Shown: piece after piece, positions 3,327 to 8,694 of the stretch
Numbering within the stretch: position 1 is the first letter of the stretch
Layout: the number at the start of each line of letters is the position of its first letter
Origin: a virus
Strand: one strand, 5' to 3'
Virus genome (UHGV): UHGV-0258155
Length of the DNA stretch: 11,436 nt
The notes under the pieces: generated by a model
What the model was told of the DNA's origin: nothing
The model's input: the letters and a program-made list of their open reading frames with translations, nothing else
Databases searched by the model: none
Position numbers and translations under genes: made by a program

Positions 3327-3485
3327 TTAACTTTCGTGCGCCATCTGGTCGTATTCAGCGCATTGCTTAGAGCAATATTCTTTTTCTTTCTGTGCCAGTT
3401 GCGAACCGTTGAGATAGAGCAAGGTGCTCTTTACTTCTGCGCCTTCTTCAACAGGCTTGTGGCAATAACCACATTCTTTTTTCAT
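3327..3485 (-). CDS. Small 52-aa Cys4 (CxxC...CxxxC) zinc-ribbon-like protein, YdaE-like by size, composition and position
   Basis: Hand-translated: MKKECGYCHKPVEEGAEVKSTLLYLNGSQLAQKEKEYCSKQCAEYDQMAHES, TAA stop at 3327-3329. AAGGACAGG RBS-like sequence lies just upstream of the ATG at 3485. Below the 60-aa cutoff of the ORF track. Confidence 0.5.
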   Translation of the reverse strand: MKKECGYCHKPVEEGAEVKSTLLYLNGSQLAQKEKEYCSKQCAEYDQMAHES

Positions 3486-3518
3486 CACCTGTCCTTAAAG
3501 TGTTTTGGCAACTCTCCG

Positions 3519-3725
3519 TTAATGGCTGAGGCCATTCCCCAGACCGTTCAGATAAACTTCAACCAGCAAATCCCTGGTGTAAGTCATCTCAACGCCGCGA
3601 TGCAGATACAAACGACCACGAGCATTAGCTGATGCCGTCCAGGTTGAATCCTTGTGTTTGACGAGCATCCCCGGCTGAACTGCGCCGCGGTTTACTGTCT
3701 GTGTACCGTAGTGCTGGTTTACCAT
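3519..3725 (-). CDS. Hypothetical 68-aa protein (occupies the kil position in Rac-like gene order; identity unverified)
   Basis: ORF-track ORF; ATG at 3725 preceded by AAGAGGAAA RBS; co-oriented with neighbours. Confidence 0.5.
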   Translation of the reverse strand: MVNQHYGTQTVNRGAVQPGMLVKHKDSTWTASANARGRLYLHRGVEMTYTRDLLVEVYLNGLGNGLSH

Positions 3726-3886: not shown

Positions 3887-4129
3887 TTATTCACACTTTG
3901 CATGCCTGACCGGCTTTAATTTCCACTCAGTGGCCTTAAGCTCAATTTCCTTCCTGATTTCCTGATACGTTTTCACGGAGCCATCAGCGTTTTTATTGAA
4001 CGGATTGAGCGTTTGATAAAACTTTTCCCGTCGTTTGCAGGCTTTACCGCATACGTCACACTTCCCTGATTTCTCAGCAAAAGTTGAGATCTCATCGAAC
4101 CGAGTTGTTGTAATTCCACCCCATCCCAT
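3887..4129 (-). CDS. Hypothetical 80-aa Cys-containing protein
   Basis: ORF-track ORF; ATG at 4129 preceded by AGAGGGTAAGG; CDVCGKAC motif; followed by the terminator at 3866-3886. Confidence 0.5.
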   Translation of the reverse strand: MGWGGITTTRFDEISTFAEKSGKCDVCGKACKRREKFYQTLNPFNKNADGSVKTYQEIRKEIELKATEWKLKPVRHAKCE

Positions 4130-4162: not shown

Positions 4163-4351
4163 TTATGTCTCATCGACGCATGGAAGTGATTTCCAGTCGA
4201 TATCGTTTTTTGCCGAATCCCACAGGCCTTTCTTTTTGTACTTTTCTGAGCATGGAATGCAGATGTTGTAAGGCCTGCCAACCATGTTTACAGATATTCT
4301 CTGCATCTCTTCAGATGCCAGAAAGTACCCACAGAATTGACACTTGTGCAT
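4163..4351 (-). CDS. Hypothetical 62-aa zinc-ribbon-like protein (CxxC...CxxC)
   Basis: ORF-track ORF; ATG at 4351 preceded by GGAGAG; MHKCQFCG...ICIPCSEKY. Confidence 0.5.
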   Translation of the reverse strand: MHKCQFCGYFLASEEMQRISVNMVGRPYNICIPCSEKYKKKGLWDSAKNDIDWKSLPCVDET

Positions 4352-4621: not shown

Positions 4622-4845
4622 AAAAAATCCTCTTGTGATTCAGCCCAGCCCACTCAACTTCGAATGGACTGGAATAAATCTGTTTGCGCTTCGCACCTCT
4701 CATCCCGCCAGTGTTGCCCGTTCCCACGCCTTTATCGCTCTCGCGATGGGGTAGCCTCACACCGACCGGATCGCGCCCGGTGCTGCGCCGAATTTGTACG
4801 TTGGGGTCTAAACAGGATTACTGAGTGCTGTTCCGACTTTGCATG

Positions 4846-4878
4846 TTGTTAAAAAGCAGGCGACTTGCTGTCCGCCGC
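4846..4878 (-). promoter_or_regulatory. Leader RNA element: bulged hairpin followed by TGC-TTTTT and a sequence close to the rrn-type boxA (TGCTTTTTAACAA versus remembered consensus TGCTCTTTAACAA)
   Basis: Minus strand reads GGCG(G)AC-AGCAA-GTCGCC TGCTTTTTAACAACA. Could be an attenuator/terminator, a nut-like antitermination site, or both. Not folded computationally. Confidence 0.3.
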
Positions 4879-4922
4879 TGGCTAACTTCGCTCAGCTGTC
4901 GATGTTTCGTTTCGATGGAGTA

Positions 4923-4951
4923 ATTAAACATCATGTGGATTTGTAGGTCAA
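4923..4951 (-). promoter_or_regulatory. PL-like leftward promoter: TTGACC (4951-4946) - 17 bp - TTTAAT (4928-4923)
   Basis: Near-consensus -35 and TAnnnT -10 with 17-bp spacer read on the minus strand; overlapped by TGTGGATTT operator-like repeats. Confidence 0.45.
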
Positions 4952-5010
4952 CACCTTGTGGATTTATTTTGTTGATTTAATCGTTTACTGTTGATTTTTA
5001 TGTTGATTTA
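4934..5010. promoter_or_regulatory. OL-like operator cluster: five TGTKGATTT repeats (4934, 4957, 4970, 4989, 5001)
   Basis: TGTGGATTT x2 and TGTTGATTT(A) x3 read directly. The same motif family recurs between the cI-like and cro-like genes at 7815-7880. Confidence 0.45.
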
Positions 5011-5036
5011 TTTTTTGGTGGCATAAGTGATATGCT
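5003..5036 (+). promoter_or_regulatory. Candidate rightward promoter for the 65-aa gene (extended -10 TGaTATGCT at 5028-5036), overlapping operator repeats
   Basis: TG-n-TATGCT read directly; the -35 is poorly defined (TTGATT at 5003-5008 is 22 bp away); strong RBS AGGAG at 5053-5057. Confidence 0.3.
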
Positions 5037-5063
5037 GAAAAAAACATCAAAAAGGAGTGGGTA

Positions 5064-5261
5064 ATGGACTTGGATGAAGAAAGAGTGAACATGATGGTTC
5101 ACGCCATGGGGCGGGCGGTCATGGAGTTGTCACTGGCAGATTTACCTATGACCCAGCAAAACATCATCGACAAGCTGGAACGGTACCGGAAGGAAACGGG
5201 AAACGTGATAGGTAAGGGTGTGAACAGGGATGCAGCTGAGATAGTGCGGAAAGGACAATAA
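5064..5261 (+). CDS. Hypothetical 65-aa protein, convergent with the NTase cassette
   Basis: ORF-track ORF; ATG at 5064 with AGGAG 6 nt upstream; TAA stop at 5259-5261 abuts the hairpin at 5266-5281. Confidence 0.5.
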   Translation: MDLDEERVNMMVHAMGRAVMELSLADLPMTQQNIIDKLERYRKETGNVIGKGVNRDAAEIVRKGQ

Positions 5262-5281
5262 AAAAGCCCGCACGGGCGGGC
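5260..5281 (-). terminator. Intrinsic terminator (GCCCGC-ACGG-GCGGGC plus T6 on the minus strand); possibly bidirectional but weak for the plus strand
   Basis: Perfect 6-bp GC stem at 5266-5271/5276-5281 with the A6 run at 5260-5265, which is a U6 tract on the minus transcript. On the plus strand the hairpin is followed by AGGTAGTGTT (poor U-tract). Confidence 0.5.
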
Positions 5282-5365
5282 AGGTAGTGTTGCGATAGTT
5301 ATTGTTATCAGCTTCAGGCTGGATAGTTATCGGCAGAATGGAGGATGGCTTTATGGGTGGGCAAT

Positions 5366-5389
5366 AAAAAACCCGGCGCGGTGGCCGGG
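5366..5389 (-). terminator. Intrinsic terminator of the two-gene cassette (CCCGGC-CACCGC-GCCGGG plus T6 on the minus strand)
   Basis: Hairpin begins 7 nt after the TAA stop (5397-5399) of the 310-aa gene; 6-bp GC stem followed by a U6 tract. Confidence 0.6.
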
Positions 5390-5396
5390 TGAGATA

Positions 5397-6329
5397 TTAA
5401 AGAACCGATTTAACAAGATGGTTTTTACGGTACAGACCTATGCGATCATTGTGAATCTCAGTAGTCTCCACTAAAAGAGAAACAATCTGTCCGACCTTGT
5501 GTTTTTTTTGTATTAAATCTAGCATTTCAATCGGATAGGAAGCCTTTAAATGTTCACCACCAACATCAAGCTCCAGCTTCCCATATTTGGATAGAACGAC
5601 CAGTTCGCCTGTAACCGTTTCAGTAATGGGAGGGGATGAAATGGTTGATGTAAGTCTACTCACCAAGTACTTAATTTTATTGGAGTCAATAGTTGCCACC
5701 TTGGTGCCATTACTAAATGGACCGGTCCAACTTGCATCAAATGTTAAGTTGTGTTTATCGCATTCCTCTACGATTCTCTTAAGGCTTACAGTGGAATTGT
5801 ATCCAATTTCAGCGACGTGATTCATGAAGTTGTTGTCGTCATCGCTTAACAACAAATCGAATATGCCTTTTACAGCCTTGCTGGGTACTGTTTCTACTAA
5901 TTCTGCTATTCCTGTAGAGAAGGTGACGCCCAATTTTGTAGACCCAGGGGATAAATCAGCCAGCCTGAGGTTTAAGGAGCTTTTCACGTCGTAGGGAACT
6001 TTTTTTGAGTCCTTGCCTGAGGCAATTTTGTGTGTTGCTCTTTGTATTAGCGCTGCAAGATTTGTTGAAATAGCCCCAAGCAGCTCTAAAGGAATAGAGC
6101 CAAAGTCAACCTCAGAGCCTTTCAGCCGCAGCTCAAAAAAATCGATAAGTGGGTGCCGACTATCTTGCTTTAATTTTTCGGCCTTCAAATCGCTCAGATG
6201 AGAATCCATGGAGCGATAAAGAAGCATGTCAGCAAAGGACCTGGTTTTGTTTTGCTTCATTGCATCGACTTCTTTTTGAATGAAATCAATGCGTTTATCG
6301 CAATTTTTAAACATTGATTTATCATTCAT
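5397..6329 (-). CDS. Hypothetical 310-aa protein, second gene of the cassette; no motif recognised
   Basis: ORF-track ORF; ATG at 6329 overlaps the TGA of the upstream gene (ATGA, 6326-6329), with GAGGA upstream; AT-rich codon usage (K/N/I/S rich); followed by an intrinsic terminator. Confidence 0.7.
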   Translation of the reverse strand: MNDKSMFKNCDKRIDFIQKEVDAMKQNKTRSFADMLLYRSMDSHLSDLKAEKLKQDSRHPLIDFFELRLKGSEVDFGSIPLELLGAISTNLAALIQRATHKIASGKDSKKVPYDVKSSLNLRLADLSPGSTKLGVTFSTGIAELVETVPSKAVKGIFDLLLSDDDNNFMNHVAEIGYNSTVSLKRIVEECDKHNLTFDASWTGPFSNGTKVATIDSNKIKYLVSRLTSTISSPPITETVTGELVVLSKYGKLELDVGGEHLKASYPIEMLDLIQKKHKVGQIVSLLVETTEIHNDRIGLYRKNHLVKSVL

Positions 6330-6805
6330 AAAAAAATCCTCACTAACCCTTTCGGGTTTTCACTGCGATCAAAACCAAACCAACCGCGCCAGTAGCTACG
6401 CCAGTACTCATAATCATAGTTAGGGTCATCTAAATTCTTCATGAGTAGTAGGACATCAATTTTGTAGTTTTGTTTGATGTAGTTTCGGTCAAGCAAATTA
6501 TCGACGCGGCCCCGAAGCATGACAGGTATTGAGTTTATATTGCTATAGTCACATACCAACAAAATATCAATATCATCAGGCTCTGGTTTAGACGTGGTGT
6601 ATGAACCATCAACCCATATTTCTGTAAAACAGCCATATTGAGCAGATAATTCTCGAATAGATTCGAGTAGCTGTATAAAATTACAGTATAGCATGCCTCG
6701 CCTGGATGATGAAGGAAAGCAATCGACACAATACGATTTTAATCCAGCTTCATCCATGTCATGGAACCCTGGCTCAAACAGGGGTGGGTAATTAATTTTA
6801 TCCAT
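6326..6805 (-). CDS. 159-aa protein with a minimal nucleotidyltransferase (Pol-beta superfamily)-like motif, first gene of the cassette
   Basis: ORF-track ORF; ATG at 6805. Sequence IWVDGSYTTSKPEPDDIDILLV fits the hG[GS]-x9-13-DxD pattern, with a further candidate acidic residue in NYKIDVLLL. Motif match by eye only. Confidence 0.65.
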   Translation of the reverse strand: MDKINYPPLFEPGFHDMDEAGLKSYCVDCFPSSSRRGMLYCNFIQLLESIRELSAQYGCFTEIWVDGSYTTSKPEPDDIDILLVCDYSNINSIPVMLRGRVDNLLDRNYIKQNYKIDVLLLMKNLDDPNYDYEYWRSYWRGWFGFDRSENPKGLVRIFL

Positions 6806-6841
6806 AAAAAACCTTGCTATACATTTGTTTTTTTTATTAAA

Positions 6842-6869
6842 AATCTAACCACCGAAATGGTGACGGCAA
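6842..6869 (-). promoter_or_regulatory. Candidate promoter for the cassette: TTGCCG (6869-6864) - 16 bp - TAGATT (6847-6842)
   Basis: Read on the minus strand about 37 nt upstream of the ATG at 6805; the spacer contains a short inverted repeat CACC-N6-GGTG. Read-through from the cI promoter is an alternative. Confidence 0.3.
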
Positions 6870-6953
6870 GATGTTACATGGGGTTACAATCAGCCAATAC
6901 ACCGCATTAAATAATTTTTTCACCAGCTATGCGCCGACCAGAACACCTTGCCC

Positions 6954-7066
6954 ATCACCCAAACGTCTCATCAGGCCACCATAAGCACGATCGCAACAAC
7001 CGAGAGCAAAGTAACCACGCCTACTATCAGATATTCTCTTATCACCCAAACGTCTCTTCAGGCCAC
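6954..7066. repeat. Two 26-bp direct repeats (6954-6979 and 7041-7066, one mismatch) between the cI stop and the cassette
   Basis: atcacccaaacgtctcatcaggccac and atcacccaaacgtctcttcaggccac read directly, 87 bp apart; the second copy ends 5 nt from the cI stop codon. Confidence 0.75.
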
Positions 7067-7071
7067 TAAAA

Positions 7072-7782
7072 TTATCGGCGATATCGCAATACCGAGTACC
7101 AGAACACAAAACCGATTATCTCGACATCTGCCTCATCAGCCTCTTCATCGTCATAATCGCGATTGATGCTTCGTATTAATAGCTTCCCACCAGGCTTTCG
7201 ATAAAGCTGCTTTATGCGCTTTAAATCGCCCTGGTTAATAGCATAGAGTTCGCCGTCAATAATCCGCTTGTTGCCTGTATCGACTGCTACCGTTGCGCCG
7301 TCAGGAATAACGGGCTCCATGCTGTCACCAGAAGCGGGAAAGCAAAGCACTCCAGAACCATCACTATTTGCACCCACCCTTCTGAGCGTTGCCTTGGAGA
7401 ACCTCAGTTTAAAGCCGTTATGATCTTCGCTATGAACACGCCCATCACCACACGCAAACTCGATATCCTTCAGAAACGGTACTTCCACCTCATCGTCAGG
7501 TAGGGGGGTATTTTTGTCCCAAGCGTCGACAGTTCCCCACTCAGACTCTGGCGGGATGTTGCTCTCCAGATCCTTCTTTGGAGAACCCTCTCCATTTAAT
7601 AACCAGTCAAGAGAATAACCGAATTTTTCAGATATTTGTTGCGCCGCCTCACGACTTAACGCGTCTCTTTTTATCCAGTTGTTGACGGTCTGTGGGCTAG
7701 TCGACAAAGCCTCAGCCAAATCCCGCTGCTTCAAGCCTTCCCTTGCCAGTAAAAATTTAATTCTTTCAGAAATGCTGCTCAT
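7072..7782 (-). CDS. CI-type prophage repressor: N-terminal XRE-family HTH plus C-terminal S24 (LexA-like) self-cleaving peptidase domain
   Basis: ORF-track ORF 7072..7836. I place the start at the internal ATG 7782 (MSSISERIKFLLAREGLKQRDLAEAL...), which has GGAGCGGAGGG immediately upstream. GDSMEP (Ser nucleophile) and a downstream LKRIK Lys fit the S24 family. Confidence 0.85.
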   Translation of the reverse strand: MSSISERIKFLLAREGLKQRDLAEALSTSPQTVNNWIKRDALSREAAQQISEKFGYSLDWLLNGEGSPKKDLESNIPPESEWGTVDAWDKNTPLPDDEVEVPFLKDIEFACGDGRVHSEDHNGFKLRFSKATLRRVGANSDGSGVLCFPASGDSMEPVIPDGATVAVDTGNKRIIDGELYAINQGDLKRIKQLYRKPGGKLLIRSINRDYDDEEADEADVEIIGFVFWYSVLRYRR

Positions 7783-7899
7783 AAAACCCTCCGCTCCATG
7801 CATGGTAAACAACATGTGGATTTTTTCCATCACCATAATGTTGATTTAATCCACGCCATGAATTAACATGGTGTTGATTACACATGAGCGGAGCAAAAC
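7783..7899. promoter_or_regulatory. OR-like divergent promoter/operator region between the cI-like and cro-like genes; three TGTKGATT repeats (7815, 7839, 7872); candidate PR TTGATT (7841-7846) - 17 bp - TAACAT (7864-7869)
   Basis: Repeats read directly and shared with the OL-like cluster; the motif GGTGTTGA at 7870-7877 recurs as its reverse complement TCAACACC at 4947-4954. Confidence 0.45.
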
Positions 7900-8121
7900 A
7901 TGATCAACAAAAAATCCAACGCCAGCACCCCGCTTGAGAAAGCCATTAATGCAGTGGGCGGCTCTCAAAAGGTGCTTGCTGAAAAGGTCGGCGTAACGCC
8001 TCAGGCCATCAATATGCTTAAAAAGCGAGGTGGCAGCCTTCCAGTAACAAAAATGCGTAAATACGAAGAAGTAACCGGACTTCCTCGCGAAGTTCTATAT
8101 CCAGGTATCTTTGCCGCCTAA
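7900..8121 (+). CDS. Cro/YdaS-like small HTH regulator (73 aa)
   Basis: ORF-track ORF divergent from the repressor; GGAG 6 nt upstream of the ATG; AINAVGGSQKVLAEKVGVTPQAINMLKKRG is a typical Cro/YdaS-type helix-turn-helix. Confidence 0.7.
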   Translation: MINKKSNASTPLEKAINAVGGSQKVLAEKVGVTPQAINMLKKRGGSLPVTKMRKYEEVTGLPREVLYPGIFAA

Positions 8122-8151: not shown

Positions 8152-8694
8152 ATGCATTCACTTGCGTATCAACACAATACCGGAATACACCCGGGAGCGA
8201 TGATAAACCGCGCTCAAGCTAAAGCGACGCCGGACCACGAAAAGATCCGCGATGCGGTCCGTGCCTGGTCATCGGCGCTGGATAATCAGGACGTGGTGTC
8301 AGCGCTGATCATCAACGAATACCGGGAGCAGGGCGGGACCGCCATCAGCTTTCCGGACGACATCAGCCGGGCGCGCCAGAAGCTGTTCCGCTTTCTGGAT
8401 AACCGCTTCGACTCTGAGCAGTACCGCGAGAACGTGCGCCAGCTGACACCGGCAATCATGGCGGTCCTGCCGGTTGAGTATCGCACTCGCCTGATCGGTG
8501 CCGATTGCAAAATGTCTCGCCTGGCTGAGGCCGAGAAAGAACTCGCAGAGGCTAAACAGGCCGTGCTGCTGGACGCTCCAGAGCATCAGAAGCTGAAAGA
8601 GGTAAGCGAGGGTATAGCGTCGCTCTTCCGCCTCATGCCGGAGCAGGTAGGACCGCTGATGACGATGGTTACATCGATGCTGGGGGTTATATGA
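8152..8694 (+). CDS. Hypothetical 180-aa protein in the CII/YdaT position (phage regulatory protein-like; weakly supported)
   Basis: ORF-track ORF; AAGGGAAAG RBS upstream of the ATG at 8152; second gene of the rightward operon after cro-like. Family assignment is positional and from vague recall. Confidence 0.5.
   Translation: MHSLAYQHNTGIHPGAMINRAQAKATPDHEKIRDAVRAWSSALDNQDVVSALIINEYREQGGTAISFPDDISRARQKLFRFLDNRFDSEQYRENVRQLTPAIMAVLPVEYRTRLIGADCKMSRLAEAEKELAEAKQAVLLDAPEHQKLKEVSEGIASLFRLMPEQVGPLMTMVTSMLGVI

Follow-up and report, generated by a model that had tools for sequence, protein, structure and literature searches.

A probable Pol-beta-type nucleotidyltransferase of the DUF6932 family and a predicted OB-fold partner encoded as a two-gene cassette behind the repressor of a lambdoid phage

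Several described two-gene systems pair a nucleotidyltransferase (NTase) with a dedicated partner protein. The MNT protein MntA carries the motif GSX10DXD in fewer than 150 amino acids (aa), is encoded upstream of HepT and poly-AMPylates HepT (PMC7641770). MenT and AbiEii extend tRNA acceptor stems, acting on nucleic-acid 3' ends (PMC7450476, PMC10435456). In the defence operon Hailong, which consists of an NTase (HalB) and a partner (HalA), the partner binds oligo-dA, the product of the NTase (PMC13434031). PDC-M63 belongs to the PDC systems, which were nominated by their embedding in BREX, DISARM or restriction-modification (RM) loci and are explicitly untested candidates (bioRxiv 10.1101/2024.01.29.577857). 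We analyzed an 11,436-nucleotide (nt) stretch of the virus genome UHGV-0258155 (the window), in which two overlapping genes, here called A and B, form a pair of the PDC-M63 and Pfam DUF6932 type. The pair shares both the family and the two-gene architecture with these entries, from which nothing differs, and PDC-M63 itself is a bioinformatic candidate only. We class A and B as a two-gene module built on a minimal NTase, in which the partner is of a new type.

The existence of the family and of the pair is not new, because they are catalogued as Pfam DUF6932, as PADLOC PDC-M63 and as PHROGs 9194/6603. Literature searches on DUF6932 and on the protein accessions returned nothing, and papers on phage mEpX1, as judged by titles and abstracts, contain no data on what gp41/gp42 do. 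OB folds and MNT-HEPN fusions are mentioned in the BREX-diversity paper, but the A-B pair is absent from it. The searchable literature yielded for DUF6932 neither a published fold or function nor any analysis of a partner. Relative to that literature, the novelty lies in what is very probably an intact Pol-beta NTase active site in A, in a non-catalytic and apparently modular partner with a predicted OB fold, and in a position behind prophage repressors that hardly varies. The features of the pair are as follows.

6326..6805, minus strand: gene A with ATG start, encoding a 159-aa DUF6932 protein, PADLOC PDC-M63A
6554..6619, minus strand: residues 63-84 of A, the strand-GS-x9-DxD core IWVDGSYTTSKPEPDDIDILLV, invariant in 37 homologues, codons checked
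6605-6607, 6602-6604, 6572-6574 and 6566-6568, minus strand: codons of the catalytic residues G67, S68, D78 and D80 of A, respectively
6455..6457, minus strand: codon of D117 of A, a residue of strand 116-123 that is the candidate for the third catalytic carboxylate, at least 90% conserved
6359..6400, minus strand: residues 136-149 of A, the family-specific invariant block RSYWRGWFGFDRSE, comprising helix 132-143 and the following loop
6326..6329, minus strand: ATGA overlap of the A stop and the B start, translational coupling as read from the junction sequence
5397..6329, minus strand: gene B, encoding the 310-aa partner, PADLOC PDC-M63B, which is helical at the N-terminus and has a middle region and a predicted OB fold at the C-terminus

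The 159-aa open reading frame (ORF) described at 6326-6805 in an earlier note on this DNA does exist; it lies on the minus strand, which that note had left out, and the sequence AAGG stands 8 nt 5' of its ATG. We read the conservation of A from an alignment of 37 homologues with identities down to about 34%. The hG[GS]-x9-DxD signature of Pol-beta NTases, as proposed in the note, proved genuine. The motif reads G67-S68-x9-D78-x-D80, and its four residues are invariant in this alignment. The peptide NYKIDVLLL, suggested to supply a third acidic residue, corresponds to residues 113-121 and places that residue at D117, which is conserved in at least 90% of the aligned sequences and sits on strand 116-123. 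The strongest signature of the family is the C-terminal stretch RSYWRGWFGF-x-R-x-E (residues 136-149), within which R136, S137, Y138, W139, R140, G141, F143, F145 and E149 are invariant. A further conserved element, G13-F-H15, is found close to the N-terminus. The earlier reading had missed the RSYWRGWFGF-x-R-x-E block, as well as the overlapping gene B and the rexAB-like slot behind cI.

The AlphaFold2 model of A, built on the same alignment, is very confident (mean predicted local distance difference test score, pLDDT, 95.8; predicted template modeling score, pTM, 0.89). It runs from helix 34-57 through strand 60-66, the GS turn, strand 79-86 (beginning with the DxD residues) and further helices to strand 116-123 carrying D117, an order that we take to be the minimal Pol-beta NTase core. 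The alpha-beta-alpha-beta-alpha-beta core is similar to that of solved NTases, the hG[GS] motif (G67, S68) follows the first core strand (60-66), and the [DE]h[DE]h residues D78 and D80 stand at the start of strand 79-86, complemented by the third-strand carboxylate D117. The solved structures nearest to A include MNT-type proteins (2rff, 8xeh_E, 1no5, 1ylq, 5yep and 1wot). These matches are modest in score and cover about 79-103 of the 159 residues, which sets the family far apart from all those with a solved structure. Taken together, the model and the conserved catalytic residues make it very likely that A has a Pol-beta NTase fold with an intact active site. The earlier note had named a missing NTase fold and unconserved catalytic residues as findings that would overturn the assignment; we looked for both, and neither was found. 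A PDB sequence search with A returned flavodoxin only (E 0.46), which we dismissed as noise, and a PDB profile search returned Pol beta and CD-NTase at a sub-significant E of about 0.3, which we do not count as evidence by themselves.

The N-terminal part of A is less unusual than the roughly 70-residue Cys-containing extension described in the earlier note. Because helix 34-57, as we read the model, sits at the position expected for the NTase core helix, the region before the motif is mostly the canonical first helix. Only about 33 residues are extra, and they form a short helix as well as a strand that bears the conserved G13-F-H15. None of the five cysteines of A occupies an invariant or nearly invariant column, and outside the enterobacterial clade other residues take the place of C26 and C29. 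A is predicted to be soluble, with a maximum 19-residue hydropathy of 1.25 and a pI of 4.7.

Pfam assigns A to DUF6932 (PF22014) with 87.3 bits (E 1.7e-24) over model positions 7-141 of 142, far above the gathering threshold of 27 bits, and RefSeq labels it 'DUF6932 family protein'. Profile searches had been proposed as the check on the NTase assignment, with NTP_transf_2 and Polbeta as the expected families. This expectation was borne out in part: neither NTP_transf_2 (PF01909) nor Polbeta (PF18765) matches the A protein of the window at E<=1, and the sole sign of a Pol-type Pfam family is a weak DNA_pol_B_palm match (E 0.044). Members of the family do match. NTP_transf_2 is touched by 22 of the 37 homologues (best E 8.8e-6), Polbeta by 24 (best E 5.3e-4) and DNA_pol_B_palm by 23. 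By these profile matches, A is related to NTP_transf_2 and Polbeta but is put by Pfam into a separate family. When clustered at 50% identity, the DUF6932 proteins found by an exhaustive profile search at E<=1e-10 make up 1,406 clusters and are, with few exceptions, stand-alone proteins of 145-170 aa. No NCBIfam model matches A or B, and the two PHROGs covering them are both labelled as of unknown function. Rare fusions exist, in which an N-terminal ImmA/IrrE domain (Peptidase_M78) precedes a C-terminal DUF6932 domain (P0297, 389 aa; P0312, 355 aa). In these fusions, the RSYWRGWFGF block is degenerate (YFMSKFG and RYWIEKFG).

A and B are closely linked. Both PADLOC models match in the window (PDC-M63A, E 1.8e-41; PDC-M63B, E 7.5e-45) to adjacent, overlapping genes on the same strand, the arrangement by which PDC-M63 is defined. 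The ATGA overlap, or a near-abutment of the two genes, recurs in distant loci. A search of one genome per species yielded 131 relatives of A, which come from Proteobacteria, Bacteroidota, Clostridia, Acidobacteriota, Nitrospirota, Verrucomicrobiota and the candidate phyla radiation (CPR), among others. With an iterated B profile, B lies directly 3' of A in 81 of 84 genome loci; of the three others, two are contig ends and one has a type I hsdR gene after A. In phages and prophages, a full-length A stands directly upstream of B in all 60 informative loci. The pairwise identities of A and B co-vary (Spearman rho 0.76), A being the more conserved protein in 94.6% of locus pairs (mean identity 37.1% vs 25.8%). 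A and B are thus almost certainly an obligate two-gene unit.

A few loci depart from this arrangement. In L083 (8001-11026), A overlaps the start of the type I restriction gene hsdR (ResIII and EcoEI_R_C), and no B is found anywhere in the 16-kb locus. In L018, L027, L049 and L078 (also L057, L063 and L047), B is split into two ORFs or shortened and A is full length; this fragmentation of B could be real decay or could stem from frameshift errors in metagenome-assembled genomes. Streptococcus phage MissE1 (L086 3929-4405) carries a solo DUF6932 homologue with 32% identity in its lysogeny module. A RelE-like toxin gene and an ImmA/IrrE gene flank this homologue, and the ORF that comes after it has 55 aa and is not a B homologue.

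The partner B lacks catalytic invariants. Across phyla, its only invariant residues are G129, S130, G176 and W201. The cross-phylum alignment contains neither a conserved acidic, basic or histidine constellation nor an invariant Arg, His or Tyr, and because no such constellation is conserved, B is unlikely to be an enzyme. Pfam scans revealed no nuclease, NADase or phospholipase signature in B, and across 34 B members gave only scattered single matches, with no HEPN in any. In the model of B, helices at the N-terminus (10-56) are followed by an alpha/beta region in the middle and, at residues 235-309, by a C-terminal unit of the form beta1-3/helix/beta4-5; S130 sits at a hairpin tip of low confidence. 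Its fold matches are OB folds, and in the model the C-terminal part (about residues 235-309) is an OB fold. Foldseek returned nothing against the PDB at E<=0.001, and B has no sequence relative of significance in the PDB. The entries 2jpu/2q00, reached with the B profile against the PDB (E 0.15) and suspected to be HEPN-like, were rejected as noise, since B lacks conserved Arg/His residues and has a different predicted fold. B is soluble as judged from its maximum 19-residue hydropathy of 1.38, without a transmembrane segment, and has a pI of 8.3. Residues 62-146 of B show a weak similarity (E 3.4e-5) to the candidate PDC-M32A (376 aa), so judging from sequence the PDC-M63 and PDC-M32 candidate systems might share a domain; PADLOC also reports a weak DrmC match for B.

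A small number of divergent loci have, in place of B, a gene for a TPR-repeat protein behind A, and the match of this protein to the B profile is confined to the first ~55 positions.

L020 8445-9455: TPR-type partner gene
L074 7970-9007: TPR-type partner gene
L060 and L047: further loci with a TPR-type partner

Because these TPR proteins match only the first ~55 residues of B, a shared N-terminal module appears to be placed on alternative partner bodies. We infer that B is modular, with a common N-terminal helical module, probably docking to A, and a swappable sensing body.

The A-B pair can now be set against the described systems. Kinship with MNT proteins, one of the options in the earlier note, holds as far as MNT proteins are among the nearest solved structures, but the pair is not a canonical HEPN/MNT module. 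A has GS-x9-DxD in place of GSX10DXD and no match to PF01909, which sets it apart from MNT proteins, and it has the conserved N-terminal GFH and C-terminal RSYWRGWFGF elements beyond MntA. The partner in HepT/MntA is a HEPN protein with RX4HXY, whereas B is a predicted OB-fold protein with neither. MenT and AbiEii resemble A as NTase-fold proteins in two-gene toxin-antitoxin (TA) or abortive-infection modules and provide an analogy for the chemistry of A. The DUF1814 domain comprises about 290 aa, and the partner gene MenA/AbiEi lies upstream of the NTase gene, the reverse of the A-B order. A is the upstream gene, has 159 aa and shows no DUF1814 match by sequence, profile, Pfam or PADLOC, which places it outside this family; the type of partner also differs, and A appears to be tolerated without B. 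In Hailong, HalA is a transmembrane ion channel, unlike the soluble B, and we detected no similarity between A and HalB. A cannot be counted among the CD-NTases of CBASS either, given its size and the lack of a PADLOC CBASS match. In CBASS, a C-terminal helical domain adjoins the NTase core and the neighbouring effector includes a nucleotide sensor, and B has no known effector or sensor domain. Proteins of the ANT/Lnu type are recognized by a resistance-model match and a second domain, and A has neither.

The genomic setting offers a further comparison. The window is the early region of a lambdoid phage, with a RecE-like exonuclease, Kil, a cI-type S24 repressor, cro-like and cII/YdaT-like genes, a replication O gene and a DnaC-like loader. 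The following features surround the pair.

7072..7836, minus strand: cI-type repressor with helix-turn-helix (HTH) and Peptidase_S24 domains (Pfam), immediately upstream of A
5353..6979: mobile block with the cassette, sharing 99.6% identity with phage mEpX1
6806..6979, minus strand: upstream spacer travelling with the cassette, with a 25-nt mEpX1-type scrap of the cI 3' end (6955-6979) and a weak hairpin (6848-6867)
5371..5390, minus strand: intrinsic terminator with a 7-bp stem, 6 GC pairs and a T-run, 7 nt after the B stop
5266..5281, minus strand: second intrinsic terminator with 6 GC pairs and a T-run

In mEpX1, the gene order is cI - A - B - nutL boxA - N, and we take the place of the cassette to be the rexAB position of lambda. 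Like rexA-rexB, the pair is a two-gene cargo in the same position and orientation, downstream of cI and ending before pL/nutL, with presumed expression in the lysogen. Unlike rexA-rexB, the pair shows no homology and no match to Rex in Pfam, PHROGs or PADLOC, and A and B are soluble, without a membrane component. The slot between cI and pL is a cargo hotspot: in phi80 (L087 1747-2613) it holds gene 40A with an acetate-kinase-superfamily domain, and in HK225 (L088 5495-6441) HK97-gp48/gp49-like genes.

The window is a mosaic, in which the cassette stands out from its surroundings. It is AT-rich, with a GC content of 38-44% vs 48-60% in the flanks, and the two intrinsic terminators at its end are strong. 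The flanks share about 95% identity with HK225 and about 92% with phi80. The identity to mEpX1 ends on the left just past the first terminator and on the right inside the 25-nt cI scrap. Between cI and A, a 31-nt direct repeat (6954-6984 and 7041-7071, 90% identical, 87 nt apart) reads in both copies on the minus strand as the end of a repressor ORF, WP[D/E]ETFG-stop, and it is within the first copy that the block identical to mEpX1 starts. These repeats look like recombination scars of successive swaps at the junction of cI and cargo. Among enterobacterial phages, 55 of 57 loci have a same-strand S24 repressor upstream of A at a distance of at most 600 bp, irrespective of immunity type. Cassettes with 98% identity or more stand behind repressors that are as little as 17% identical, and the largest A cluster is linked to eight repressor clusters. 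Identical cassettes behind divergent repressors, together with the near-constant adjacency to a repressor, identify the cassette as mobile cargo selectively kept behind the repressor. The identical A-B pair is present in 18 of 5,426 complete E. coli genomes, one example being a prophage with different repressor and replication genes. An Rfam scan of 4800-7200 found nothing.

The placement behind the repressor suggests expression in the lysogen, and transcription together with cI is probable because the cassette directly follows the repressor gene in the rexAB position. We tentatively read A-B as a lysogen-expressed exclusion module, in which A is the enzyme and B a nucleic-acid-binding switch or guide; this reading as a whole is quite possible, and a role in defence or exclusion of whatever kind is rather probable. 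The specific mechanism outlined here is more doubtful. The cassette would be cargo behind the repressor, transcribed in the lysogen together with cI, and would exclude superinfecting phages in an abortive-infection or toxin-antitoxin-like manner. A would be the only enzyme and would work only together with B, which would serve as a non-catalytic regulator or sensor. The N-terminal helical module of B (about 55 aa, common to the TPR-type partners) would dock onto A, and the OB fold would bind nucleic acid, such as phage single-stranded DNA (ssDNA) or RNA, or tRNA, switching on or directing A. By analogy to the MenT/AbiEii toxins, A might then nucleotidylylate a macromolecule, for which the 3' end of a nucleic acid is the most plausible candidate. 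A sensor-like B fits its faster evolution compared with A, the alternative TPR partners and the ImmA/IrrE fusions. The direction of regulation as well as the donor and acceptor of A are what we infer.

Several observations weigh against the proposed exclusion module. The model of B is only moderately confident (pLDDT 76.5), and OB folds also bind proteins or oligosaccharides. When the minus strand was scanned for promoters, none of the sigma-70 consensus type turned up for the cassette, and a weak hairpin separates cI from A, which makes the joint transcription of cI and the cassette presumptive. Outside phages, the surroundings of the pair are mixed. In favour of a link to defence speak a type I RM system and YoeB/Phd beside one A-B locus, DUF87/DUF4007 beside another, and hsdR, PD-T7-4, HEC-01 and HEPN genes among other neighbours, as does the embedding by which PDC systems were nominated. 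A third locus adjoins a large helicase gene and further loci housekeeping genes; no conserved third gene accompanies the pair in these loci. Across phyla, the immediate neighbours are heterogeneous, many of them housekeeping genes, and because these 144 flanking ORFs are so heterogeneous we make no claim of an enrichment in defence islands. Finally, deletion of a prophage-borne PDC-M63AB in E. coli NILS69 left the infectivity of 10 virulent dsDNA phages unchanged (PMC12409345), which is the only experimental report on PDC-M63 we found.

Other explanations of the pair deserve consideration. An antitoxin logic like that of MNT proteins, in which A nucleotidylylates B and keeps B, the effector, inactive, would leave unmodified B to sequester ssDNA, RNA or tRNA, for example after depletion of nucleoside triphosphates (NTPs) or loss of the modification in infection. 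The NTase-first gene order, the small size, the GS-x9-DxD motif and the structural neighbours of A all recall MntA, and S130, the only invariant polar residue of B, would be a conceivable acceptor at its flexible hairpin tip. B is also never found without A (60/60 phage loci) and A is found without B, as expected if B needs A for safety. However, B has no HEPN match, no conserved Arg/His/Tyr motif and no enzymatic signature, for which reason its toxicity would have to stem from binding alone. The known AMPylators of proteins with a Pol-beta fold that PMC7641770 cites act on Tyr rather than Ser, the faster evolution of B relative to A suits a sensor better than an effector, and the TPR-type alternative partners are not obvious toxins; we regard this logic as unlikely. 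The converse arrangement, a classical pair of toxin A and antitoxin B, was down-weighted since A stays intact where B is split or missing, even if frameshifts in metagenome-assembled genomes may explain some of these cases. In a CBASS- or Hailong-like scheme, A would synthesize a messenger or a template-independent oligonucleotide, for which the OB fold of B would be the receptor, and infection would shift the ligand level. Hailong sets a precedent as a small two-gene NTase system whose constitutive oligo-dA gates the partner (review, PMC13434031), and the OB fold is a natural oligonucleotide binder. B, on the other hand, shows no recognizable effector, transmembrane segment, or nuclease, NADase or phospholipase signature, and we consider such a scheme rather improbable. 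About as slim is the chance of a guard, in which A would be a template-independent polymerase or tailing enzyme whose single-stranded product or substrate is held by the OB fold of B in the lysogen. The A-B complex would maintain or survey the nucleic acid held by B, and incoming phage nucleases, single-stranded DNA-binding (SSB) or recombination proteins would disturb it and trigger exclusion. In its logic, such a guard would be akin to the DNA-gated Hailong, but it would be soluble and built from an NTase family unrelated to that of Hailong. Its sensor bodies (OB-fold, TPR, ImmA/IrrE) would be swappable, with the N-terminal docking helix in common.

The near-invariant position beside the repressor also raises the question whether A-B modulates the lysis-lysogeny switch or a repressor/antirepressor circuit. 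The rare fusions of the A domain to ImmA/IrrE anti-repressor-type metalloprotease domains, the solo A beside ImmA/IrrE in the MissE1 lysogeny module and the lack of a defence phenotype in NILS69 are in line with such a role. Nevertheless, the pair also occurs in many non-prophage chromosomal contexts (RM, TA, housekeeping), and the slot is a cargo hotspot with unrelated genes in related phages. Moreover, a function tied to one repressor is hard to reconcile with the presence of identical cassettes behind unrelated repressors, and prophage regulation appears improbable. Least credible is an antibiotic NTase of the ANT/Lnu type, which the earlier note had listed among the options. Structural matches to such enzymes exist but cover the shared NTase core only (84-100 residues), and A has no second substrate-binding domain. 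NCBIfam includes resistance-gene models, none of which matches A, and both the obligate non-resistance partner and the context of a phage immunity region stand against this assignment.

With A and B defined in this way, an anonymous pair of a hypothetical and a DUF gene becomes a testable two-component system. If the pair is an exclusion system, as we tentatively prefer, it would represent a new NTase-based mechanism in the rexAB slot of lambdoid phages and a simple pair for the coupling of a minimal NTase to a nucleic-acid sensor. If it does not serve defence, it is still a widespread enzymatic cargo linked to lysogens.

Elsewhere in the window, we noted additional small ORFs. A 65-aa ORF on the plus strand (5064-5261), without a Pfam match and in a stretch of strongly positive GC skew (+0.37), lies between the terminators of the cassette and the leftward early genes, and HK225 has a plus-strand hypothetical gene in the equivalent region. 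Three small ORFs of the leftward early operon on the minus strand (3327-3488, 3887-4129 and 4163-4351) contain paired CxxC motifs and are zinc-ribbon-like; they adjoin the Kil homologue (3519-3725), and the HK225 annotation describes them as hypothetical only. On the other side of the repressor, the cro-like gene (7900-8121, plus strand) and the cII-like gene (8152-8694, plus strand) match Pfam YdaS_toxin and YdaT_toxin, respectively. These 'toxin' names are probably misleading, as the position of both genes and their homology to phi80 gene 30 and cII point to immunity regulators.

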